From Methanothrix sp. (GTDB lineage: Archaea > Halobacteriota > Methanosarcinia > Methanotrichales > Methanotrichaceae), in contig JBAXWY010000038.1 in assembly GCA_037128175.1 (NCBI GenBank), positions 1-26,913 on the forward strand: a stretch of 26,913 nucleotides of DNA, read 5' to 3'. Of the stretch, positions 3,005 through 26,859 are shown one piece after another; the stretch's first letter is position 1, and each line of letters begins with the position of its first letter. The position numbers and the translations under genes are program-made. The notes under the pieces were generated by a model that worked only from the letters and a program-made list of their open reading frames with translations, made no database searches and was not told the DNA's origin.

Positions 3005-3367
3005 CTAATGATGAAGGTAAAGCTGACATTTTGTCCGAGCATTTCTTGATACTTTTTTTATCGAGAAGGAATAATTATTGATTGTACTCCGAGACAGCTT
3101 CCTGTCATGGAGCTGATCGCGAAATCCGGCAAAATCATCTGCGGAAGGCGAATCAGTTTCTGAGAACTCCAAGTATTTGGTTACATGTAAAACATACATG
3201 GGAATAGTGGACGTTCTTAGCCCTTTATCCTCCAAGTACCTTCTGTAACGCTTAACAGCAGGTTTAAGGTCTTCTTTGCTAATAACTCTCTCTTCCAGTT
3301 CACATCCATACGCTTCTTGGGCATCTTGTATCAACCTTGAAGCGGCACTGAAAAAGAATCCTGTCAC
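3005..3367 (-). pseudogene. Tyrosine integrase N-terminal (SAM-like, core-binding) fragment
   Basis: RRYLEDKGLRTSTI..Y and LSRSTINNY.FSIKK match integrase N-terminal domains; lies 50 bp downstream of the tRNA-Leu 3' end. Removing one A from the A7 run (3053-3059) restores IKKYQEMLGQNVSFTFI. The catalytic domain is absent. Confidence 0.75.
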
Positions 3368-3416
3368 CCATAGAAAAATTCTACGAGTGTTAATAGGCTA
3401 AAACCGATATCATTAA

Positions 3417-3500
3417 TGCGGGATACGGGATTCGAACCCGCGAACTCCTGCGAGACAGGATCTTAAGTCCTGCGCCTTTGGCCAGCTTGGCTAACCCCGC
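3417..3500 (-). tRNA. tRNA-Leu (anticodon TAA)
   Basis: GCGGGGT/ATCCCGC-A acceptor stem, CAGGA-CTTAAGA-TCCTG anticodon arm, long variable arm, GGTTCGAATCC T-arm; CCA not encoded. Confidence 0.97.
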
Positions 3501-3605
3501 GCTCATCAGATCTATACTTCTGGAATAAGTACTTTCCCGATTCAACAAACCTTTTTTGCGCCCTTAATTTGCAGATCATAGTAAAAGAAAAAAGGAGATG
3601 GTGGC

Positions 3606-6197: not shown

Positions 6198-6797
6198 TTA
6201 AGCCGGAGGCATAACCTGGCCGCCCTGCGTCGTGGGGGCAGGCTGAGCTGAGGCCGCAGCCTCGCCCTTCACGATTTGTAGGCTGGAAAGCAAGCTCTCC
6301 GTAACATCCTGTGGGAATGTAGAGGTGATTACGACGCTGGTCTTACCGACTGATAACGGTCCGCATTCGCAGCCCTGGCTGTCCAGCCAGTACATGGCTC
6401 GATAGACTGAGCTAGGAGCTCCAGCTATCGCCTCTAATGGATTACTTGTAACCAAAAAGCCTTCCTTCCCGTCAATTGTCATATCTTCGACATTTGTGAC
6501 ATTGAGGCCCTGGAGCATCATGCTCATCGGTAACATGCTCTTAAAAACCATCAGTGTGGAATCGGTCGGTTCGGCGTACTCCGTTATGCCGATTGCGGCA
6601 AAGGTGGAGTTGTCGACGAATAAACGCATCTGGTAGGCGTTGCTGGTCTCCGTTTCAATCGGCTGGCCTATTTGAGGTTGATAATTGGCGTTTAGATCAA
6701 ACGATACCGCGTAGGGGCCGAGCTGTTGGTTATCCGGCACAGCAATAGCTATGGCCGACAGCATCAGCACTATGGTTGCTGCTAATAATAACTTCAT
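6198..6797 (-). CDS. Secreted hypothetical protein
   Basis: GGTGA RBS, signal peptide, LGPY.VSFDLN start of the mature protein, low-complexity tail. Confidence 0.85.
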   Translation of the reverse strand: MKLLLAATIVLMLSAIAIAVPDNQQLGPYAVSFDLNANYQPQIGQPIETETSNAYQMRLFVDNSTFAAIGITEYAEPTDSTLMVFKSMLPMSMMLQGLNVTNVEDMTIDGKEGFLVTSNPLEAIAGAPSSVYRAMYWLDSQGCECGPLSVGKTSVVITSTFPQDVTESLLSSLQIVKGEAAASAQPAPTTQGGQVMPPA

Positions 6798-6928
6798 TTA
6801 ATTTTCACCCGAAGCCATTTGCTCCTTCATCCTAGAAAAGACTTGCTTTGATATGCCCCTCGTATATTTCCTCCACGATTCCTATACAAAGCATCAAGCT
6901 CAAATATCCGCCATCCTGAGCACCAGGC

Positions 6929-7360
6929 ATGCAGCCGCAGAGAAATGAGCCGGGAATTTATACGCTGATACTTTCTTTGCAGGAGGCAGAGAAGATAAAG
7001 GTCGGATCTCTGGGCATTATGGACTTTGCCGGGGGCTTCTATTCTTACACCGGCTCGGCGCGGGGCTCCGGCGGTCTCAAGCGCGTGGATCGCCACATTC
7101 TGGTGTCAAATGGCATCAAAACAACGCGGCGCTGGCATATCGATTATCTCTTGCCCCACACTTGCGTCCGGGAGGTGTTCATCACTAAAACCCCCCAGGA
7201 TCTGGAGTGCTGCATCGCGAATGCGATAGGAAAGCAACTCGTTCCTGTGCCGGGCTTTGGCTGCACGGATTGTCGCTGCATAAGCCACCTGCACTATTCC
7301 CCGGGCCTGGGAGAGATGCGAGCGGCAGTAGCAGCGGCTCATGGTGTGGCCGTGATTTAA
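6929..7360 (+). CDS. GIY-YIG (Uri) nuclease family protein, DUF123 type
   Basis: GIY.L, Y.Y.GSA.G, RWHIDYLL and GFGC.DC.C.SHL motifs. Confidence 0.9.
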   Translation: MQPQRNEPGIYTLILSLQEAEKIKVGSLGIMDFAGGFYSYTGSARGSGGLKRVDRHILVSNGIKTTRRWHIDYLLPHTCVREVFITKTPQDLECCIANAIGKQLVPVPGFGCTDCRCISHLHYSPGLGEMRAAVAAAHGVAVI

Positions 7361-7424
7361 AGACGGTCCGGTGCCGAGATAATGGTCCCCGATCCGGGTT
7401 GAGAGCCGTCTCCGTTCGTTCGTC

Positions 7425-7451
7425 CTCTGTGCGCTCTGCGACTCTGCGGTT
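7425..7451. repeat. Triple CTCTGYG short repeat between convergent genes
   Basis: CTCTGTG-cg-CTCTGCG-a-CTCTGCG-GTT; the reverse strand reads AACCGCAGAG-T-CGCAGAG-CG-CACAGAG. Confidence 0.6.
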
Positions 7452-7472
7452 TCATTTCGGTATCGTTCCTCT

Positions 7473-8111
7473 TCACGGGCAGGGCAAGGTCAAAACGGAG
7501 GTATCTCCTACAATCGTTTCCGATCTTATCTGCGCGTAGCCCATGTATGTTCCGCCCATTATAAAGGACGGCACGGTCTTGGCATTCTTCTGCACCCGTT
7601 GGCCGATCCTGGCGGTCCCCTGGATCTCGGAGCTGATCTCATAAACGGAGAAGCTGTCATTCTGGTAAATCTTGGTATCCTTTATGAGGTCTTTGTCGAT
7701 GTTGTAGTTCTCAGAAAAGACCGATCCCACCTCGTAATTCTTGGCACAGAGAGCATTTCTAAGGTCGCTTTGTGTGAGGGGGGGAGTGTAAGGCCGGTAA
7801 TCATAATTGGCAGAGATGGTGAGGGATGCTTCATCCATATTCGAGTCCCGGTAGACCTCCGAGTCGATGGTTCTGGTGGCCATTCCACTTCCACTTGTGG
7901 TGAGGGCGATCTTTTGCCCTTTGAAGCCGGTCTTGGTCTGCAAGATTCTCGACTCTTCCAGGTAGCCGTTGACGAATATCCAGGAATGCTCCGTGAAGTT
8001 CTGAGCTAATCTATCCTTTGTCATGGCCTTTGCATCAACTGTGTTTACAGCAGCCATATTGGCAGCGATGCAAGCAAAAACTAACAGCATCGCGAAAAGC
8101 ATCCATCTCAT
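7473..8111 (-). CDS. Secreted hypothetical protein
   Basis: 212-aa ORF with a signal peptide, LCAKNYEVGSVFSE motif and C-terminal LPCP. Confidence 0.85.
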   Translation of the reverse strand: MRWMLFAMLLVFACIAANMAAVNTVDAKAMTKDRLAQNFTEHSWIFVNGYLEESRILQTKTGFKGQKIALTTSGSGMATRTIDSEVYRDSNMDEASLTISANYDYRPYTPPLTQSDLRNALCAKNYEVGSVFSENYNIDKDLIKDTKIYQNDSFSVYEISSEIQGTARIGQRVQKNAKTVPSFIMGGTYMGYAQIRSETIVGDTSVLTLPCP

Positions 8112-8174
8112 CTTTGCGCCTCACCCACTTATGGATAGGCAATGGTGCATTGAAATATAAATGTGATCCTGCAA

Positions 8175-8312
8175 GCATCCTCCTGGCAAAGGACAATGGG
8201 GCCAACCAGTTAGTGATGCTGGAAATGCTCACGCGCGCGCCTGGGCAGCCGGGCGGACGGGGCCGCCCACGGCATCGAGACCACCCCGGCCCAGGAGCGC
8301 CGGCCCTGCGAC
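8175..8312 (+). pseudogene. Decayed response-regulator receiver (REC) fragment, copy A of a 138-bp direct repeat
   Basis: Reads ILLAKDNGANQLVMLEMLTR, then after 4 extra nt in a (GC)n run LGSRADGAAHGIETTPAQERRPCD. This matches REC beta1-alpha2 (ILLAEDN..NQ.V...L..LG..AD.A.NG.E..QALE...YD). 131/138 identical to 11005-11142. Confidence 0.75.
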
Positions 8313-8413
8313 TGCATAAGAGTGGAGTTCTGCTCTGAAGCAACTATTTTTTTAAAGATATTGATCCAAATGTTTTTCTAGCTTGGCATCCATATTTCTT
8401 CTGAGGTGTTCCA

Positions 8414-8956
8414 TTGCTGAAAGCTATGCTCTACGTATTGATATTATCCTCGTTGTCACTCGCAATTTTTATGGGCACAGCAACTGCACATAATCCATCT
8501 GAAGTAGGTGGTAGTGCTCATACCCATCAATTGCCTCCGCCCTGGCCCTATCACGTCGCAATGGTATTTTTAGGGTTTACGTCTCTAGTCGGAGGAGCTT
8601 TCACGGCACGATACTTAAAGCAAAGGACGGGATGGATTGGGTTACATAAAAAACTGGCACTTATCGGTGTCGTATTTGTTCTGGCAGGTCTTTCCATCGC
8701 GGCATATATGGTATCCGTATACATGGAAACATTTTTTGTGCATGAAATGCATGCCTATTTAGGCGCCAGCGTCTTTGCTTTTCTCATAGTGACTCCTATG
8801 TTGGGAATACTCCAATTCAGATCGAGAGATATGAGAATACACACCATCCATCGATGGAGTGGGCGTATTACAATAATGCTCGTTCTGTTCACAATTATCG
8901 CAGGAATACAGATGGTACAAACTGTGTTAGCTCAAAGTGCGGGAAGCGGTAAGTAA
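8414..8956 (+). CDS. Cytochrome b561-like di-haem membrane protein
   Basis: GAGGTG RBS, signal or TM segment plus four TM helices, each with a His (YH, LHK, HAYLG, IHRW.GR). Confidence 0.8.
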   Translation: MLKAMLYVLILSSLSLAIFMGTATAHNPSEVGGSAHTHQLPPPWPYHVAMVFLGFTSLVGGAFTARYLKQRTGWIGLHKKLALIGVVFVLAGLSIAAYMVSVYMETFFVHEMHAYLGASVFAFLIVTPMLGILQFRSRDMRIHTIHRWSGRITIMLVLFTIIAGIQMVQTVLAQSAGSGK

Positions 8957-9210
8957 TCAATATGCAGCCCGAACTATGGAATGCCCGTAAAATAATAGAA
9001 GATGCCGAAATGTCTGAGCTTACCGGGCAGAAGTGGCCCAGGCCCTGCGGTAATTTTGCTCAGGGATGGGCGGCGGGCGGCTCGCATCATCCGCAAGCTC
9101 TGGTAGAGGGGTTGAGGAGAATGGGCGAGCAGGTGACAAGCTCCTGCGCGGGCGAAAAATGAGCATACGTAGGTATCTGAGCAGGAAGTGAAGAAGATGT
9201 CAGAGTCGAG

Positions 9211-9375
9211 TCAATCGTTATTCTGGCAGACGGAGCCATCGTCAAAGACATCCTCGAGGCGCTTTTTGAGTGTTTCGTACTCCTCTTTGCTGACACGCCA
9301 GACAACTTCACCATTCATATTGACAGCGCCGTCGTAAGGGAGGTCGTACCGTATCATTTCACGCCGATCCACCAT
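9211..9375 (-). CDS. Small hypothetical protein (54 aa), copy 1; below the ORF-track cut-off
   Basis: MVDRREMIRYDLPYDGAVNMNGEVVWRVSKEEYETLKKRLEDVFDDGSVCQNND; frame conserved without indels in copy 2; TATA-like TAAATA about 25-30 nt upstream. Confidence 0.6.
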   Translation of the reverse strand: MVDRREMIRYDLPYDGAVNMNGEVVWRVSKEEYETLKKRLEDVFDDGSVCQNND

Positions 9376-9421
9376 ATCAATCCCTTTACGTTCTTTAGAT
9401 ATTTAGTGCGGGGGGACGGGA
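9226..9421. repeat. ~190-bp direct repeat including a copy of the tRNA-Leu(TAG) 3' end (att-like)
   Basis: 9226-9405 aligns without gaps to 13149-13328 (over 90% identity by eye). TGCGGGGGGACGGGA (9407-9421) matches TGCGGGGGACGGGA (13338-13351) with one extra G. Confidence 0.9.
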
Positions 9422-9705
9422 ACCCCGCACGAGTTTACGAGTAAAAATCAAACCCTATGTCTCTCTACACAATGAGCTTTCTAATAACAAGTGAAAACGC
9501 CAGCAAAAAAGCCACAAGGGCCAAGAAAGACTCCCATGGGACGGACCGGCCAAGCGCAGCTGCCCTCTGGCATATGCTCGAACAAGTTAATTAGAGCCCC
9601 TTCTTAAAGCTCACAAACGAGGGCCGATGGTCGAGAAACATAACCCACCCCTACCTTCATCTCGGCCTGAGCCAGCCACATGGTATAGAGCAGTTCTGCG
9701 GTTGC

Positions 9706-9888
9706 TCAAGGCTTAATATAAGCATTCAATCCGATGGTGATCGGCTTATCATCAACTTTAGCGGTAGTAACGATATTCCCATGTGTACTTGCAACAACAA
9801 GGGTTTTACCGGATGACGATGGGGTTGGTTTTTCCAGGTCAATTTCTATGAAGAGCTTGTTATCCTTGATTTCTACTTTCAGAGTCAT
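9706..9888 (-). CDS. Small beta-rich hypothetical protein (60 aa)
   Basis: GGAG RBS before ATG 9888; L.IEIDL...PS.SGKT.VVAST.GN...IGLNAY is a small-protein pattern I recall from mobile elements; function unknown. Confidence 0.8.
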   Translation of the reverse strand: MTLKVEIKDNKLFIEIDLEKPTPSSSGKTLVVASTHGNIVTTAKVDDKPITIGLNAYIKP

Positions 9889-10017
9889 ATGAGTTCTCCT
9901 ATTGGCCATTCTTTCGACATTCTCATCTATTACCCTTTCCCTGAGAGATCCTCAGACATTTTTCGACGATTTTCGCGTTGCAACCATTTATCTCTTGGGG
10001 TCAAGGGACAGAGAAGA

Positions 10018-10340
10018 CCGCATCCTTCAGAGTGCGGATGAATCGAGCCCCTTGCGAGAGTACTTTCGTCCCGAGCTACTCGATTTGATATAGTTTCAAG
10101 ATGATTAGATCTTAGTTCCCTGGCACGTCCAGGAAACCGATTCACGCCTTCTAAACGGAAGGTAGGGCACTGAAGTTCTACTTCAGAGAGACGGTGAACG
10201 TGAATCAATCGCTTTGCGTGGCATGATCCTCGTAAGAGGATGGTCTGAGCGTGAACGGAAAGGTTCAGCAACAACAGCGTTAAGATCTCCACGCTTAGCA
10301 GGCTGCCTGAGTTGAGTGAAACTCTGCGGGTTCGCTACCC
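10018..10340 (+). ncRNA. Highly structured non-coding segment; candidate group II intron domain I fragment or novel ncRNA
   Basis: At least 11 stems in 320 nt, including GATTCACG/CGTGAATC (10139/10199) enclosing two hairpins, AATCGAG/CTCGATT and ATCCTC-GTAA-GAGGAT. GU pairs favour the + strand. Class assignment is from recall only. Confidence 0.55.
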
Positions 10341-10780
10341 AAATGTCAACCAGCCGATAGCGACACGACTTTTTGCGTAGTCGCAAGCCACGGACTTTAG
10401 GCCGTGGTAGTTGACGTAACAAAAGGATTGAGGCGGGATAAAATTTGGAAATACAATTTTTGGGTCCAATGGAATTTCAAATCTCTCCACTTCTGTTATC
10501 TCCCAAGCAAATCCTATTTCTTTATTCCTAAAATAGTCAAAAAACTCGTCTTCAGAAATCCCCGCATCATCCTTTGTTGGTCCCATAAAGCTCTGGGACT
10601 GCCTTCAATTATATTATTTATCTTGAAACTTCCAATTATTTTTTTAATAGGGGCGGTTGAGTAAATATATACACAATTTATATCTGTTTTAGCGAATTTA
10701 CTTTTGCGAAATTCATATTTTTTCCGCCCATCCATAATAGCCTCCACAAATCTTGGCTTAATGGATAGTAAAACGTCCAT
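10335..10780 (-). pseudogene. ASCH/PUA-domain protein, frameshifted, with its 3' end replaced by the IS605 end
   Basis: LLSIKP.F.E.I..G.K.YEFRK..VYIYS.AP...IIG (10514-10780) continues in another frame as AGIS..EFF.YF....PPQSFCY (10335-10586); one base is missing near 10575. Confidence 0.85.
10345..10415 (+). mobile_element. IS200/IS605-family end (tnpB-type right end / omegaRNA 3' part)
   Basis: Subterminal hairpin CCACGG-ACTTTAGG-CCGTGG followed by TAGTTGAC; GTCAAC (10345) is complementary to the terminal GTTGAC; GTCAACCAGCCGATA reads VNQPI, like TnpB C-termini. No tnpA or tnpB ORF present. Confidence 0.75.
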
Positions 10781-11004
10781 CGATATCACCGATTTCTTTT
10801 ATAGATTAAACATTATTTATTACTATGAGCTGCGCATTTGTTAAATAATCAATTTCTATAAATAACCTATCCCTGGTGCGAATAGTAACGATGCCCATGG
10901 GCGCGATGATGCCCAAGATGTAAGAGAATCGTGTCCCATCATTAAGTGCAAGCAGAAGATAGAACCTAACGAGGGGTTCCCGTCCGGTCCGCTTGCCTCC
11001 CTGT

Positions 11005-11157
11005 GCATCCTCCTGGCGAAGGACAATGAGGCCAACCAGTTAGTGATGCTGGATTTACTCACGCGCGCGCCTGGGCAGCCGGGCGGACGGGGCCGCCCAC
11101 GGCATCGAGACCACCCAGGCCCGGGAGCGCCGGCCCTGCGACAATGGTGCTCATGTA
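11005..11157 (+). pseudogene. Decayed REC fragment, copy B
   Basis: ILLAKDNEANQLVMLDLLTR, the same 4-nt GC slip, LGSRADGAAHGIETTQARERRPCD, then +1 MVLMY (matching DLVLMD). Confidence 0.75.
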
Positions 11158-11194
11158 TAGATTGTGGTCGCTGGGGATCGCCCAAAATTTGGGG

Positions 11195-12907
11195 CTATTG
11201 GCAATCACCTACCATCTCATTTTCTGCCTCAATTCGCTCGTGAAGATGTTGCTTTAAAATTGATAGAAGATCTGGACCTTTTGCGACCTTATCAGTTGCA
11301 CCTAGATCTCTATAATCCGAATTTACAAGCAGATAAGCATCTGCAAAAATTTCAACACTCAACTCTTTTTCCGCAAGTGACGCCAATTCTTGCGTCTGAG
11401 GATTTGCCTTTGATAATGCTAGCATTGAAGCAGCCATTGCGATATAGAATTTGAGGTCGGTTTTCGCTGAAGCCGTAAGATCTCCTGTGTACAAATTAAG
11501 AAATTCCTCCGTTAATTTTATAATTTGGGCGCATGCACGATAAATCTCAATTGGGTACTCACGATTGAATAATTTCTTATATTCTTCATCCCGCTTCATT
11601 AGAGAAGATGGCCTTGCACGTGCTGTATCTGGCTTTTGGAGAACAACTGCCATAACAGCCTGTGCCATTTGTGGAATGCCTACTATCCTATTAATTGGCT
11701 TGCCTTCATTTTTATAATAATTCTTTCTGCGATCGTAATAAAGACCAAACGGTTTAAGGTACTCTTCGATATCTCTGTGAATTCTGTCTGTTGCCCGCAG
11801 AGATGCAGGAGGAATTGCGGTTTGGCTGTTGGTTGCCTTTATTATGCGATCTCGGCTCTCCGATGCATTTGGCACTATTACTCGGACTAAGAGATTTCTT
11901 TCATCGCCTTGAGTATTACAGCTTGAGAAGTAATTGTATATTTCTGTTGAGGTCTGGAGTCCGTTTACTACTTCGGGATTTTCAACTGTTATCTTTTTTC
12001 CGCTTTGAGTTGCCTTTGATGCCAGCACTGTGATGCCATTGTTTAACCACCAGAAGTCTTCATTAATCGGATTTTGAAGCGAGGTTTGAATCTCCTCGTT
12101 TACTTGCGTCTTACCTTGATAGTCCCTTACATTGGCTTCGAAAATTTGGCGTATTAGATGGCCTTCCGAATCAGTTATAAAGCTGTAGAAATCATTGAGA
12201 GAAACTAGGCACACAAAGGCTACTGCACCCGTAGACGATATTGGATTTTCGGAAAGCTTGAGTTCATAAGTTGTTATGGGCGAACGACGTGCTAGATCCA
12301 GCAAGTTCCTTGCACCCAAGAATTCAATCTTAAACTCAGAAGATGAAAAGAGATGCTTGACTGTGTCTCTAAGGCGGACTTCCTTTCGCTCAACATTGGA
12401 ATGAAGTTGATCACCTTTTGTGGCATAATAATATAATAATGACAATTTTGGAAATCTGGAGGCTAGCATTTGATAAGTTTTTCTGAATCGTTTTACTGCT
12501 TCAATCAGTGACGGATTATATACCGAGCGGAGTTCATCGAGTGGTCTTGATAAATCGAACAGATCTCCTGTGGCAGAAATAAATCGATCAATAGCGGCTT
12601 CTGAAAAACCAGAAGTCGTCTTTGATTGAATCATTACTACCTCTATTGTTATATTTTTTTTCAAATCTGCGAAGTCACTATCGTCCTGTAGAAGTTCCCC
12701 ATTGACAAAAACATAGAACGAATCAATGCCACCATCACCGCTTCCAGAGATTATGCCTGATACAAGTTCGTCATAAGACAAGTCGAAATCTTTTAGGATC
12801 TGTTCTGATGTAAATACTTCAAAATACTTGTCAACAGCAAGAGTCGGTGCGATATTGCAGCGTTGTTGTTCCAGAACTTGGTCTAGGATAATTCTATCAT
12901 TGCTCAT
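11195..12907 (-). CDS. AIPR family protein (abortive infection phage resistance, often RM-associated)
   Basis: DGGID, IQSK, IFEANVRDYQG, FW.LNNGIT, VNGLQTS, ATNSQT and YYDRRKNYY motifs; GAGG RBS. Confidence 0.95.
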   Translation of the reverse strand: MSNDRIILDQVLEQQRCNIAPTLAVDKYFEVFTSEQILKDFDLSYDELVSGIISGSGDGGIDSFYVFVNGELLQDDSDFADLKKNITIEVVMIQSKTTSGFSEAAIDRFISATGDLFDLSRPLDELRSVYNPSLIEAVKRFRKTYQMLASRFPKLSLLYYYATKGDQLHSNVERKEVRLRDTVKHLFSSSEFKIEFLGARNLLDLARRSPITTYELKLSENPISSTGAVAFVCLVSLNDFYSFITDSEGHLIRQIFEANVRDYQGKTQVNEEIQTSLQNPINEDFWWLNNGITVLASKATQSGKKITVENPEVVNGLQTSTEIYNYFSSCNTQGDERNLLVRVIVPNASESRDRIIKATNSQTAIPPASLRATDRIHRDIEEYLKPFGLYYDRRKNYYKNEGKPINRIVGIPQMAQAVMAVVLQKPDTARARPSSLMKRDEEYKKLFNREYPIEIYRACAQIIKLTEEFLNLYTGDLTASAKTDLKFYIAMAASMLALSKANPQTQELASLAEKELSVEIFADAYLLVNSDYRDLGATDKVAKGPDLLSILKQHLHERIEAENEMVGDCQ

Positions 12908-13145
12908 TATTAGCCTCTAATGATTTCATTTTTCTATTTTATGCAAAGAAGATCTTAATTAAGTATTTGCCACGAATTAATTATTTATGTATTGTTTAGT
13001 TCACCTTAATCCGCTTCATTAAACTCATTTTATGATATTATGGATGGCGAGTTCAAAGAGCCAATATCAAGTAACTTCAGCTATTGATATTATTTCTCAA
13101 TTTAGCAAACGTTGTTGGGCGACATATCTTCATTGAAATAATATC

Positions 13146-13298
13146 CTAGCAGACGGAGTCATCGTCAAAGATATCCTCTAGGCGCTTCTTGAGTGTTTCG
13201 TACTCCTCTTTGCTGACACGCCAGACAACTTCACCATGCATATTGACAGCGCCGCCGTAAGGGAGGTCGTACCGTATCATTTCACGCCGATCTACCAT
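13146..13298 (-). CDS. Small hypothetical protein (50 aa), copy 2, directly downstream of tRNA-Leu(TAG)
   Basis: MVDRREMIRYDLPYGGAVNMHGEVVWRVSKEEYETLKKRLEDIFDDDSVC; TTTAAATA TATA box about 25-30 nt upstream. Confidence 0.6.
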   Translation of the reverse strand: MVDRREMIRYDLPYGGAVNMHGEVVWRVSKEEYETLKKRLEDIFDDDSVC

Positions 13299-13337
13299 AT
13301 CTATCCCTCTACGTTCCTTAAATATTTAAAGATCAGA

Positions 13338-13420
13338 TGCGGGGGACGGGAGTCGAACCCGCGAACACCTTCGTGACAGGGTCCTAAGCCCTGCGCCTTT
13401 AACCACTTGGCAACCCCCGC
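13338..13420 (-). tRNA. tRNA-Leu (anticodon TAG)
   Basis: GCGGGGG/CCCCCGC-A acceptor stem, CAGGG-CTTAGGA-CCCTG anticodon arm, long variable arm, GGTTCGACTCC T-arm. Confidence 0.97.
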
Positions 13421-13489
13421 GTTTGTGCCTTCCTCAGTAAGGCTTGGCCACATAAAAGAACTGTGCTCTACTAGAACTTTGCGATCCCC

Positions 13490-13930
13490 TCAACACCTTC
13501 CGGAGGCCCTCAGCCTCCTCGACGCCTGGATGAGGTCCCTCATCTCCTCACGGCTCACCTTTTGCCTCTGCTTTTGGTCCTCCCACTCGCGCCGGAAGGG
13601 ATAGAAATACTCGTAAAGCTCCAGGATGTCCCTTGCGTACACCACGAGCCCTTCCTCAATCACCGCGATCTTGATGTGCAGAGGCAAGAGCTCGAAGATG
13701 CGCACGTCATAGCGATGGTCACATAGATGCGAGATGAACTCTCTCCAGAGCGCGGCTTTATCGGCGGCCTCTGGGGCTACTATGCACAGGTCGATGTCGC
13801 TTCTCGGCCCAGCATCACTACGAGCCACGGAGCCGTAGAGAAGCACGCCCTGCACTTGATCCTGCCAGAAGGATTCATGCAGAAACAGCAGGTCGTTTTT
13901 CACCTGGGCGGCAACATCTTCTCCAACCAT
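13490..13930 (-). CDS. mntA: Minimal nucleotidyltransferase (MNT) antitoxin
   Basis: LYGS.AR......SDIDL (GSX10DXD) motif; overlaps the HEPN gene. Confidence 0.88.
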   Translation of the reverse strand: MVGEDVAAQVKNDLLFLHESFWQDQVQGVLLYGSVARSDAGPRSDIDLCIVAPEAADKAALWREFISHLCDHRYDVRIFELLPLHIKIAVIEEGLVVYARDILELYEYFYPFRREWEDQKQRQKVSREEMRDLIQASRRLRASGRC

Positions 13931-14331
13931 GCTTCCACCTCTTCGCCAAAAGCCGTGATGCCGGAAAGCAAGCCTCTCATGCTATCCAGAGCGAGCAGAT
14001 CATCCCTTTTATTATACCTGTGCACCAGATGATTGCGTAGGCCGTTGGCTTCAATCAGGACCTTCTTTGAGCCTTCTGTCAGATCCCCCAGATTCTCAAG
14101 GTTGCCGTAATCGTCATGTGGCTTGATCCCCAGATCCTTGCACATCATTGCCACCAGATCCATACAAGCTTCGACGGCTTCCTGAAATGCCTTGTAGGAT
14201 GCCAGCTTCGTCTTGTCATCCTCTAAAAAAACCTCAGAGGATACCTCCTCCAGCCAATCCTGCGCCTGCCCGGCTCTCTTGAAAATAAGATCGAGCTTAT
14301 CCTTGTATCTGCCTGCTCTTTCTATCTTCAT
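13900..14331 (-). CDS. hepT: HEPN/DUF86 RNase toxin
   Basis: RNHLVHRY (RX4HXY) motif; paired with MNT. Confidence 0.88.
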   Translation of the reverse strand: MKIERAGRYKDKLDLIFKRAGQAQDWLEEVSSEVFLEDDKTKLASYKAFQEAVEACMDLVAMMCKDLGIKPHDDYGNLENLGDLTEGSKKVLIEANGLRNHLVHRYNKRDDLLALDSMRGLLSGITAFGEEVEAWLEKMLPPR

Positions 14332-26124: not shown

Positions 26125-26859
26125 AGCGGTCGTAACGAAATAACCTAGGTATATTCATATATTTTATTTTGGCTTAATTGTATAATTCCATTCTTCGTGA
26201 AATTTCTCAATTGTTAGGTTTATTTCTTTTAATTCATTGTCAGATATCTTAATGCCTTTTCGGTAGACTTTTTTATCAATGCCACACTCTACATGAAGCC
26301 CTTTTTGGGTAGTAGTAGCTGCAATGAGATTTACTATGACTTCGTGGCTAATTAATGGCTTGCCTCTCCAGTTTTGGGTGATGAATGAAAATAGTTTATG
26401 CTCTATCTTATTCCACTTGCTTGTTCCTGGTGGAAAATGAGATACTGAGATCTCCAATCCAGAATCGTCTGCAAGTTTCTGAAGTTCAACTTTCCACAAT
26501 CGAGCTCGATAGCCATTAGAACCGCCGGAATCTGCCGTAATTAGAAGCTTGTGGGCATCTGGATAAGCGATTTTTCCCATTGTATTCCACCATTGCCGTA
26601 TACTTTCTACTGCAAAAGCTGATGTGTCGTGATCGGTTCCTACACCGACCCAACCTTCATTGCGTGAAATGTCATAAACTCCATAGGGATTTACTTTTCC
26701 CAAAGCTGGTATTTTAAAATCATGAACAAACACTTTCACAGGATTGCCTTTCAGGTGAAATTCACGTCCCCCATTCTTAAAATTTCCAACAAGCTCTTTC
26801 TTTTTTGTATCCACAGATATTACAGGTTGTCCATATTTTTTAAATAATTTAGTTTTATT
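26125..26859 (-). mobile_element. ISAzo13-family element, 5'-truncated by another IS
   Basis: The frame reads QPVISVDTKKKELVG..HDF..PYGVYD..HDT..FAVESI..WW..ITADSGGSNG..PPGTSKWNKIEH..WNYTI and is open up to 26859. Putative right end GTTATTTCGTTACGACCGCT at 26144-26125. Confidence 0.93.

Follow-up and report, generated by a model that had tools for sequence, protein, structure and literature searches.

The closest described systems are tRNA-linked genomic islands (Islander, PMC4383910) and additive flexible islands or core defence hotspots (Johnson et al. 2023, PMC10250203; Hochhauser et al. 2023, PMC10121019). Some occupied sites in the known hotspots are described as being without identifiable mobilisation, and the authors of that account propose transfer of the whole region via homologous flanks (PMC10250203). 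The locus analysed here lies in a 26,913-nt stretch of Methanothrix sp. DNA (the window) and shares with those islands, as these sources outline them, conserved flanks, a tRNA at one edge and a variable content that includes defence genes. Against the same outlines, it differs in being an archaeal (Methanothrix-type) locus with inserts of only 0.7-4 kb and no integrase within the island, in the doubling of its tRNA-proximal flank (small ORF plus receiver pseudogene) with each copy interrupted separately, and in its displaced "tRNA fragment", which belongs to a multi-copy module of 0.6-0.73 kb and forms its end.

On the near side, the variable region is anchored by tRNA-Leu(UAG) (13338-13420, minus strand; ARAGORN, Rfam), which is 97-100% conserved across the genus. 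The far conserved flank is a left neighbour gene (7473-8111, minus strand) for a 212-aa predicted secreted protein of no family, 80-91% conserved in G011, G012, G013, G020, G024, G010, G006, L043 and L055. Downstream of the tRNA, two pairs of direct repeats, D1 (187 nt, 9219-9405 versus 13142-13328, 93% identity, 13 mismatches, longest identical run 49 nt) and D2 (138 nt, 8175-8312 versus 11005-11142, 95% identity, 7 mismatches, longest identical run 59 nt), keep the same order and enclose an AIPR/AbiU gene and a cytochrome-b561-like gene. Each repeat occupies two sites and has no further copy in its own genome (blastn, 98 contigs), which rules out chance. Read from the tRNA, D1 copy B (minus strand) carries a 50-aa small ORF (13146-13298, minus strand) and is followed by the inserted AbiU/AIPR segment (11154-13141, minus strand) and D2 copy B (11005-11153, plus strand), the N-terminal part of a decayed receiver (REC) domain, which is preceded by about 100 nt of kinase-receiver linker remnant (about 10900-11004). 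Then come a frameshift-split ASCH-domain gene (PDC-M11B; 10335-10789, minus strand; ORFs 10514-10789 and 10335-10586), a multi-copy module with a 67-aa ORF (9405-9991, minus strand; ORF 9706-9909) and D1 copy A (minus strand) with a 54-aa small ORF (9211-9375, minus strand). The distal part consists of a region of 178 nt that continues the decayed receiver domain (9041-9218, plus strand), the insert with the b561-like membrane protein gene (8356-9040, plus strand), a fragment of 43 nt from the 3' end of an ASCH (PDC-M11B) gene (8313-8355, minus strand) and D2 copy A (plus strand), 64 nt from the left neighbour gene. The sequence-only reading of two tandem modules was right about the repeats, their order and their orientation, but it omitted the 1.56 kb between the modules (9441-11004), which hold the frameshifted ASCH/PDC-M11B gene and the 67-aa ORF module; likewise, its 0.9 kb of b561 cargo does contain that gene, but 178 nt of it are receiver remnant and 43 nt are the ASCH fragment.

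Such a layout could in principle be an assembly artefact, a single contig pieced together from two strains whose shared repeats enclose different cargo. The assembly is a metagenome-type draft (98 contigs), and because k-mer contigs break in both repeats, they do not by themselves assign each cargo to its slot. Nevertheless, the longest identical runs in D1 and D2 are shorter than ordinary reads, an independent metagenome contig (L040, 2550 nt, 99.96%) spans 8191-10740 from the b561-like gene through D1 copy A to the ASCH gene, and Logan contigs from three runs of three other studies cover all unique junctions without differences at even depth (about 12-14). Moreover, doubled receiver remnants occur independently in G013, G012 and L043, and we regard an artefact as highly improbable.

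Homology indicates that the arms D1 and D2 were not purpose-built but are left over from genes native to the chromosome, namely a small ORF and a receiver domain in decay. The receiver domain, that of a hybrid histidine kinase, is represented by D2, by the 178 nt that follow it and by the first part of D1. In G024 an intact 560-aa GAF-HisKA-HATPase-REC gene adjoins the same left neighbour gene, and its Pfam Response_reg match (4.9e-27) starts at residue 435, exactly where D2 aligns. D2 copy B matches nt 1303-1449 of this gene (77.6% over 152 nt), D2 copy A matches it at 77.9% over 131 nt, window positions 9064-9103 match nt 1467-1506 (85% identity), and a fuller receiver copy in L046 matches at 76.8% over 319 nt. 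The earlier recognition of a REC remnant is thus borne out by nucleotide homology to a bona fide receiver domain; a Pfam search of the translated remnants gave no receiver-domain match, a point against this reading that is nonetheless expected of a frameshifted pseudogene. The tRNA-side receiver copies retain the linker of about 100 nt, and the 178-nt region is contiguous with D2 in both copies of G013, in L043 and partly in G011 and G060. From the synteny with G024, the site of D2 copy A beside the left gene is taken as the ancestral position of the kinase gene. The small ORF stands behind the tRNA in the more distant G019 as well, with start and frame kept, 76% nucleotide identity and conservative replacements, which indicates that a conserved 50-54-aa ORF within D1 natively follows the tRNA; its product falls into only 6 protein clusters among 5.8 billion proteins.

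The arrangement in G013 shows the doubled scaffold with both slots empty: tRNA, D1, 178 nt, D2, intact ASCH gene, module, tRNA look-alike, D1, 178 nt, D2 and left gene, with direct repeats of 489 nt (91.4%) at a period of 2117-2119. Imprecise excision followed by re-integration, or a Campbell-type single crossover, leaves direct repeats of the host flank on either side of an insert, starting at the att site. The G013 layout resembles such products; it departs from them in that neither an integrase nor an excisionase nor a circular form was seen, and plain tandem duplication gives the same picture. The look-alike of the tRNA 3' end in the window (about 9407-9428) agrees with it at 21 of the 22 letters aligned; the alignment has 26 columns, two gaps (4 letters and 1 letter) and identity throughout the last 8 nt. 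D1 copy A abuts this look-alike at the nucleotide where D1 abuts the real tRNA in G013. What had been read as a copy of the tRNA 3' end is a look-alike that forms the terminus of the multi-copy module, not a plain att duplicate. This module end is a G+C-rich hairpin (about 9406-9430, -16 kcal/mol) that mimics the T-arm and acceptor end of tRNA-Leu. Module copies (0.6-0.73 kb, conserved 3' region about 290 nt, 88-98% identity) were found in 27 of 59 genus genomes among the matches listed; 8 copies were aligned, and copies at other loci, including loci without a tRNA, share the look-alike. In G017 a 1.43-kb insert with the module at its end adjoins the 3' terminus of tRNA-Leu(CAA) to the nucleotide; this site is uninterrupted in G002 and G061, and G020 probably carries the same case. 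All 8 further module loci scanned had no tRNA within about 2 kb, so tRNA targeting rests on two loci, tRNA-Leu(CAA) of G017 and the window locus.

The module is also what gives some appeal to successive integration of two related mini-elements at tRNA-Leu(UAG), each bringing a tRNA-end copy, small ORF, cargo and receiver remnant: the look-alike that separates the two units is part of the multi-copy module, which at another locus is inserted at the 3' end of a tRNA-Leu, and the 3.9 kb next to the tRNA (2.1 kb in G013) have the character of an insert bounded by the tRNA and the look-alike. Synteny contradicts the second element, since the copy beside the left gene is chromosomal flank; the distal receiver remnant lies 64 nt from that gene, where G024 has the intact kinase, and the same joint is found in G020. 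Beyond the distal module there is no third tRNA-end copy, and neither module contains an integrase. We consider two such elements unlikely.

Indeed, the part of the sequence-only reading that called the locus integrase-less agrees with our search, as the stretch from the tRNA to the left neighbour gene is free of integrase genes, and none of the 15 ORFs scanned around 6198-14331 matched recombinase families. The sole integrase trace is a 120-aa N-terminal fragment of a tyrosine integrase (3005-3367, minus strand; Pfam Phage_int_SAM_1/4/5), located directly downstream of a second tRNA-Leu (UAA, 3417-3500) and adjoined by an IS transposase fragment (2383-2814; Pfam DUF772). The six PF00589 matches of the genome are all on contigs other than that of the window. 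Like integron gene cassettes, the locus has a series of promoter-poor single-gene inserts between recurring elements; unlike integrons, it has no IntI-type integrase, no conserved recombination site at the cargo ends, and varying breakpoints. An integron-like cassette array was rejected on the lack of inverted repeats above shuffled sequences, of constant D2 junctions among loci and of an integrase.

When we compared the relatives, the interval from tRNA to receiver held at least 6 different contents in the 10 loci that have the tRNA and a receiver remnant on one contig: AbiU in the window, nothing in G013, genes for 283-aa and 302-aa zinc-ribbon proteins in L043, a 251-aa membrane protein or related insert in G011, G060 and L046, PDC-M11A and B in G012, G051 and G050, and a membrane protein with three TPR proteins in L055. 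On the opposite side of the tRNA, a pair of MNT nucleotidyltransferase and HepT genes (13490-14331, minus strand; Pfam) is lacking from some relatives; in G012 and L055 position 14349 of the flank is connected directly to about 13550. A tRNA-anchored hotspot with defence genes, as first proposed, is therefore supported by tabulating the cargo of the locus and its close relatives, since the content differs among them and includes AbiU, PDC-M11A/B and the HepT/MNT pair.

The more specific proposal, a dedicated integrase-less cassette hotspot in which D1 and D2 act as fixed homology arms and cargo is exchanged with incoming DNA bearing the same arms, fares differently. The scaffold is known both empty (G013 twice, L043) and filled (window twice), and the 43-nt ASCH fragment joins D2 copy A at the nucleotide where the full ASCH gene joins D2 in G012 and G051, a shared joint which means that D2 copies have recombined and which, as the record of a past crossover, speaks for cassette exchange. 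Of the 5 D1-D2 intervals resolved, cargo occupies only 2, both of them from the window genome, and the other three are uninterrupted, with presence or absence as the sole variation and no third cargo type among the five. D1 is absent in 8 of 11 related loci carrying D2, and the receiver remnant is cut at roughly 138, 151, 190 or 235 nt into the repeat depending on the locus, which is not a fixed slot. With arms that are decaying remnants of ordinary genes, swapping between fixed arms is not supported. Compared pairwise, the D1 and D2 copies are about 90-97% identical without falling into clear orthologous groups, and these identity matrices therefore do not separate integration from duplication or gene conversion.

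The two cargo genes of the window have different histories. ORF 11195-12907 (minus strand, 570 aa) matches Pfam AIPR (1.3e-39, 137 bits against a cut-off of 25) and PADLOC AbiU (5.9e-205, 680 bits), with residues 3-556 on profile positions 1-535 of 537. The AbiU segment has a G+C content of 39% against 51-54% in the flanks and stands in place of a 171-nt receiver remnant that G013 and L043 retain, so it removed part of the arm interval instead of filling a slot. Its ends show no terminal inverted repeat and no target duplication above shuffled controls, and this lack of transposon-like ends speaks for cassette exchange. ORF 8414-8956 (plus strand) matches Pfam Cytochrom_B561 below the cut-off (18.0 against 23 bits, E 0.0035), and its nearest Atlas cluster (score 0.92), which may be the ORF's own, is named for the cytochrome b561 domain. 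On either side of the insert stands a 9-nt direct repeat that belongs to a doubled piece of the receiver, and the insert's terminal inverted repeats do not exceed shuffled controls. An 81.3% homolog of the gene lies beside the same left gene in G020, where the flanking genes are 81-85% identical and a receiver piece beyond it matches the G024 gene (70.7% over 75 nt, E 0.001). The left-hand receiver trace in G020 is visible by eye only. This flank-like divergence is at odds with exchange, and the b561-like gene seems to go back to an old insertion that G020 shares, not to a cassette swap. Within the receiver remnant, the two cargo junctions of the window are separated by only some 13 nt (one after repeat position 138, the other after about 151), which fits cassette exchange. 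That closeness is also what a site preference would predict, and it counts against the explanation we prefer. Weighing these observations, we find a dedicated cassette system improbable.

The ASCH gene is intact as a 151-aa form in G013 (PADLOC PDC-M11B 2.8e-49, Pfam ASCH 8.9e-4), and its PDC-M11A partner (PADLOC 1.8e-120) is present in G012, G051, G050 and G001. By these profile matches, the window gene is an orphan, frameshifted B gene of the two-gene candidate defence system PDC-M11. The locus thus resembles the PADLOC-DB systems in its near-full AbiU profile match and in the matches of the ASCH gene and the relatives' partner to PDC-M11B and A, and differs from full PDC-M11 in retaining the B gene only. 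Recognised defence genes at the locus and in its relatives are AbiU, PDC-M11A, PDC-M11B and the HepT/MNT pair; no defence model matched the other inserts (251-aa, 283-aa, 302-aa and TPR proteins). To our knowledge, neither AbiU nor PDC-M11 has been tested in archaea.

No undoubled order of tRNA, small ORF, receiver remnant and left gene was found at tRNA-Leu(UAG) among 59 genus genomes and 16 metagenome loci, so we infer the order of events. The enzymes are inferred as well, and what the data show directly is how the locus is built, what its parts are homologous to and how relatives vary. The native tRNA flank would have been the small ORF followed by the convergent receiver-domain end of a hybrid histidine kinase pseudogene, about 0.5 kb in all. 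A block containing the ASCH/PDC-M11B gene and the multi-copy module with its tRNA-Leu-mimicking end would then have been placed at the tRNA 3' end, bringing its own copy of the flank and so doubling it, whether by aberrant excision and re-integration, a Campbell-type crossover or an equivalent tandem duplication, routes that are equal in outcome; G013 would represent the pure doubled form. The copies would have been altered later and independently, the tRNA-proximal one by the low-G+C AbiU gene, an abortive-infection gene, with loss of 171 nt of pseudogene, the distal one by the older b561-like insertion and the scrap of ASCH gene. Further, differences among strains would stem from insertions at the tRNA end, deletions into the pseudogene of varying depth and homologous recombination between pseudogene copies. 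We therefore presume, as the probable reading, that this locus is a tRNA-linked island of defence and other variable genes shaped by integration and generic recombination without dedicated cassette machinery.

Reading from tRNA-Leu(UAG) (13338-13420, minus strand, called by Rfam and by a tRNA search) towards lower coordinates, the locus begins with D1b, the tRNA-side copy of direct repeat D1 (13142-13328, with a 50-aa ORF), followed by a 1,988-nt segment with a 570-aa AbiU gene (Pfam AIPR, 1.3e-39; PADLOC AbiU, 5.9e-205), D2b, the tRNA-side copy of direct repeat D2 (11005-11142, homology continuing to 11153), and a 1.56-kb block missing from the sequence-only reading. Beyond this block are a tRNA 3'-end look-alike (about 9407-9428), D1a (9219-9405, with a 54-aa ORF), a 178-nt receiver-domain remnant (9041-9218), a cytochrome-b561-like gene (8414-8956, plus strand), a 43-nt stretch (8313-8355) and D2a (8175-8312), which lies 64 nt from a conserved 212-aa gene (7473-8111), hereafter the left gene. 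Rfam found two tRNAs over the window and nothing else. The D1 copies (187 nt) are 93% identical and the D2 copies (138 nt) 95% identical, with 13 and 7 differences and longest identical runs of 49 and 59 nt, and a search of the own genome placed each repeat at two sites and no other; given these identities and this restriction, the layout is real and not a chance likeness. The doubled D1/D2 arrangement around two cargos, noticed in the sequence-only reading, was thus confirmed by repeat alignment and own-genome search.

The genome comprises 98 contigs (2.96 Mb), of which the window is the entire 26,913-base contig C38. Part of this order recurs on L040, an independently obtained metagenome contig of 2,550 nt (99.96% identical), which starts within D2a, crosses the b561-like gene, D1a and the look-alike, and ends in the ASCH gene. 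Moreover, Logan contigs from three runs of three other studies cover every unique junction with zero differences and even depth; they end within the repeats, as expected of k-mer assembly, hold no joint over cargo or repeats, and are of a kind that misses rare excised or empty forms. Doubled receiver remnants are also found in two genus relatives (G013, G012) and at locus L043, and a chimeric assembly of the window is unlikely. An ISAzo13-type DDE transposase (26164-26814, 7.7e-101) at the contig end probably explains why the assembly stops there. Between a DUF123 gene and the left gene (7400-7460), contig depth is about 110-120, versus about 13 nearby, with many loose contig ends and one joint going back 50, marking what is probably a short element repeated many times.

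In the relative G013 (contig C101) the same doubled scaffold is present with both slots empty. On the tRNA side the order is tRNA, D1, 178 nt, D2, a spacer, an intact 151-aa ASCH gene and a module with a 67-aa ORF, and on the distal side tRNA look-alike, D1, 178 nt, a D2 that lacks 48 internal nt, and the left gene; the direct repeats of this genome are 489 nt long and 91.4% identical, with a period of 2117-2119. This layout shows that D1, the 178 nt and D2 belong to one contiguous unit and that each cargo of the window interrupts it.

Thirteen copies of D2 from relatives were aligned, and the most distant (77-78%) lies within a 560-aa gene of G024 that is intact, has GAF, HisKA, HATPase_c and Response_reg domains and directly adjoins the left-gene homolog. 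The alignment of D2 to this kinase gene begins at residue one of the receiver domain (gene nt 1303, residue 435), and the 178-nt region continues the same domain (9064-9103 against gene nt 1467-1506, 85%). In addition, a fuller receiver copy at locus L046 aligns over 319 nt (76.8%), and the tRNA-side receiver copies retain about 100 nt of the linker preceding the domain. The label of receiver remnant in the sequence-only reading was therefore correct, as a matter of DNA homology and not of a protein profile: six translated pieces of the frameshifted remnants gave no Pfam match to Response_reg at E up to 10. The remnant is what decay has left of the 3' end of a hybrid kinase gene of the chromosome, and not a purpose-built arm. 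For the small ORF of D1, a search of 5.8 billion proteins yielded only six related clusters; G019, a more distant relative, has this ORF after the same tRNA with start and frame kept (76% nucleotide identity), and one G013 copy has an in-frame stop. Its AlphaFold2 model (9-row alignment) is a weak one of a beta-hairpin and a helix (mean pLDDT 61.8, pTM 0.35), and neither the small ORF nor the 67-aa ORF matched any family in Pfam, NCBIfam, PHROGs or PADLOC. Codon positions did not serve as an argument for the small ORF, since its wobble positions are also those of the frame on the opposite strand, and changes that look synonymous do not distinguish one strand from the other.

The interval from the tRNA to the first receiver remnant was resolved on one contig at 10 loci and has contents of at least six kinds: the small ORF with AbiU (window), the small ORF alone (G013), genes for 283-aa and 302-aa zinc-ribbon proteins directly at the tRNA end, ahead of the small ORF (L043), a 251-aa membrane protein or related insert (G011, G060, L046), PDC-M11A with PDC-M11B (G012, G051, G050), and a membrane protein with three TPR proteins (L055). 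PDC-M11A and PDC-M11B are present in G001 as well, on a contig without receiver remnant. Between the tRNA mimic and the receiver remnant next to the left gene, the second interval holds the small ORF and the b561-like gene in the window, the small ORF alone in G013, a 62-aa ORF in L043 and a deletion in G012 and L055; the same 62-aa ORF follows the mimic in G051, where the contig ends before any receiver remnant. Tabulated across relatives as had been proposed, the cargo does vary, but the breakpoints vary too and D1 is often missing (8 of the 11 related loci holding D2). The receiver remnant is cut after repeat position about 138 in window copy A, G012 and G051, about 151 in window copy B, about 190 in G011 and G060 and about 235 in G050, and is uncut in G013 and L043; three of the five resolved D1-D2 intervals are empty, and the two filled ones are both in the window. 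A dedicated system in which cassettes are exchanged between homology arms would draw mainly on the two window junctions lying only about 13 nt apart; with the repeats being eroding host genes, D1 and D2 as purpose-built arms were not borne out, and we consider such a system very improbable.

Presence also varies for a HepT/MNT nucleotidyltransferase pair immediately 5' of the tRNA (13490-14331), which is absent in G012 and L055, where the flanks join cleanly. Contig C1 of G005 has, in addition to the full tRNA-Leu(UAG) gene (1487596-1487686), 48 nt of the 5' part of this gene duplicated 3.3 kb away (L018, 1484249-1484296), beside the MNT homolog, which suggests an insertion on the 5' side of this tRNA. 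At L046 only 56 nt (2847-2902) match tRNA-Leu(UAG), with unrelated sequence after. The 62-aa ORF, which matched no Pfam or PHROG family, adjoins receiver-remnant fragments in L043 (3709-3897), L033 (about 8950-9150), L041, L042 and L045.

The AbiU segment has 39% G+C, versus 51-54% in its flanks, and takes the place of 171 nt found between D1 and D2 in G013; measured against shuffled controls, it shows no excess of terminal inverted repeats and no target duplication. Across 59 genus genomes and 16 metagenome loci, DNA-level matches placed AbiU at this position in no other genome, and an 81% homolog lies at another place in G009. The b561-like gene is taken as a putative old insertion, which G013, G012, L043 and L055 are without, because its 81.3% homolog in G020 stands beside the same left gene (itself 85%), with a receiver piece just past it (70.7% over 75 nt against the G024 gene, E 0.001) and a D2 trace, seen by eye only, before it, and because in the window a short receiver piece that includes a 9-nt exact repeat is doubled around the insert. 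The 43 nt at 8313-8355 are the 3' end of an ASCH gene, and D2 joins them at the same nucleotide at which it joins the complete ASCH gene in G012 and G051; this shared joint is direct evidence of past recombination between D2 copies.

The most unusual feature of the locus is a multi-copy module of 0.6-0.73 kb that mimics tRNA-Leu. The look-alike is a perfect 8-bp G+C hairpin (-16 kcal/mol) that terminates a conserved unit of a 60/67-aa ORF and about 290 nt (9405-9991 in the window, ORF 9706-9909; other loci L005, L056-L062 and L065). Among the matches listed, copies of 88-98% identity occur in 27 of 59 genus genomes, including some with core genes only about 72% identical to those of the window. 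A 1.43-kb insert in G017 terminates in the module and sits precisely at the 3' end of tRNA-Leu(CAA), a site uninterrupted in G002 and G061, where the flank resumes directly past the shared terminal letters; for eight further copies no tRNA lies closer than about 2 kb, and several of them retain the same hairpin end. In the window and G013 the hairpin meets D1 at the nucleotide where the real tRNA of G013 meets D1. Judged from ORF lists alone, the roughly 2 kb around the examined copies showed no integrase. The 60-67-aa ORF has 1,541 related clusters, with 76-87% amino acid identity across many bacterial phyla (Syntrophobacteraceae, Nitrospirota, Geobacteraceae, Chlorobiaceae and others); conservation in bacteria is limited to the ORF, the flanks not being conserved, and in Atlas the 67-aa ORF falls in 'hypothetical' clusters only. 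A structured RNA in the module 3' region was unsupported, since none of the 84 pairs predicted by RNAalifold from 8 copies had a compensatory change. In an Oryzomonas isolate, a module-type ORF lies between an RNase-H-like gene and a GIY-YIG gene. Two window segments, 9985-10123 (about 139 nt) and 10317-10415 (about 99 nt), have 80-91% copies on many contigs of many genus genomes and look like miniature repeats; contig depth was 3-6-fold higher over 9884-10090 in three runs. A joint reading, which we hold to be rather unlikely, is that the module, with its 60-67-aa ORF of bacterial type and a conserved 3' region whose end mimics T-arm plus acceptor end of tRNA-Leu, would be a non-autonomous miniature integrative element, served by an integrase in trans and landing at tRNA-Leu 3' ends, with the mimic as second landing pad, tRNA and mimic each nucleating a cargo slot, and cargo spreading between Methanothrix strains by recombination in the small-ORF/receiver flank.

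We favour, with some reserve, a tRNA-linked additive and replacement island, in which DNA would land at the tRNA 3' end, the neighbouring pseudogene would be eroded by deletions of variable depth, and the doubled flank of pseudogene and small ORF would provide substrates for homologous recombination, by which the content beside each copy is reshuffled. The tRNA-proximal 3.9 kb (2.1 kb in G013) is read as DNA placed at the tRNA end, with the mimic as its distal bound; since a D1-receiver-linker copy of its own stands at the start of this block, the block must have brought a flank copy with it. Such a copy might have come with an element that was aberrantly excised and re-integrated, or through a Campbell-type crossover, and plain tandem duplication would give the same picture; identity matrices of the D1 and D2 copies held no orthology signal and do not decide between these integration routes and duplication. 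The tRNA-proximal block does resemble an element, as would be expected of two mini-elements in tandem, but the distal module is chromosomal flank by synteny, and we regard a tandem pair as unlikely. Overall, the observation in the sequence-only reading stood, and its interpretation was partly supported.

No integrase was found between the tRNA and the left gene. An integrase acting in trans on the island is possible, given an integrase N-terminal fragment (3005-3367, 120 aa, Phage_int_SAM) that follows tRNA-Leu(UAA) (3417-3500) directly on the downstream side and has a DUF772 transposase fragment (2383-2814) beside it, and two full tyrosine recombinases elsewhere in the genome, one of them near a doubled tRNA-Gly. 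This last region (C5, 98631-104713) is a classical integrated element, its two tRNA-Gly(CCC) genes lying 6 kb apart and one of them accompanied by a full tyrosine integrase. In G020 a stretch like window 3219-3502 (80%) lies downstream of tRNA-Leu(UAG) instead, which hints at a possible exchange between these two tRNA-Leu loci; the second tRNA-Leu(UAA) of the own genome is on C3. A G022 match to 2396-2906 was rejected as synteny, being only an IS (DUF772) copy.

An earlier study describes islands as usually landing at tRNA and tmRNA genes, their ends marked by a regenerated gene and a displaced fragment (PMC4383910). In Pseudomonas and E. coli, according to two reports, defence hotspots with conserved flanks lie beside tRNA genes, some with no identifiable means of mobilisation, and transfer via homologous flanks was proposed (PMC10250203, PMC10121019). 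The present locus is an archaeal member of the tRNA-linked defence hotspots and differs from the bacterial ones described there in its unusually small inserts and doubled flank. Among the matches listed for literature on Methanothrix tRNA islands and integrases, PDC-M11, AbiU and PADLOC, the locus was not described, which leaves absence unproven. The locus offers a worked archaeal case of how a tRNA-linked defence hotspot is built up in an acetoclastic methanogen lineage, and the finding that its seemingly designed homology arms are eroding host genes is a caution against taking repeat-flanked cargo too readily for a novel cassette system. The doubled flank would give more room for recombination, so that small defence inserts could be reshuffled without a resident integrase; AbiU and PDC-M11 are candidate antiviral genes in Methanothrix, and the tRNA-Leu-mimicking repeat module may merit separate study.
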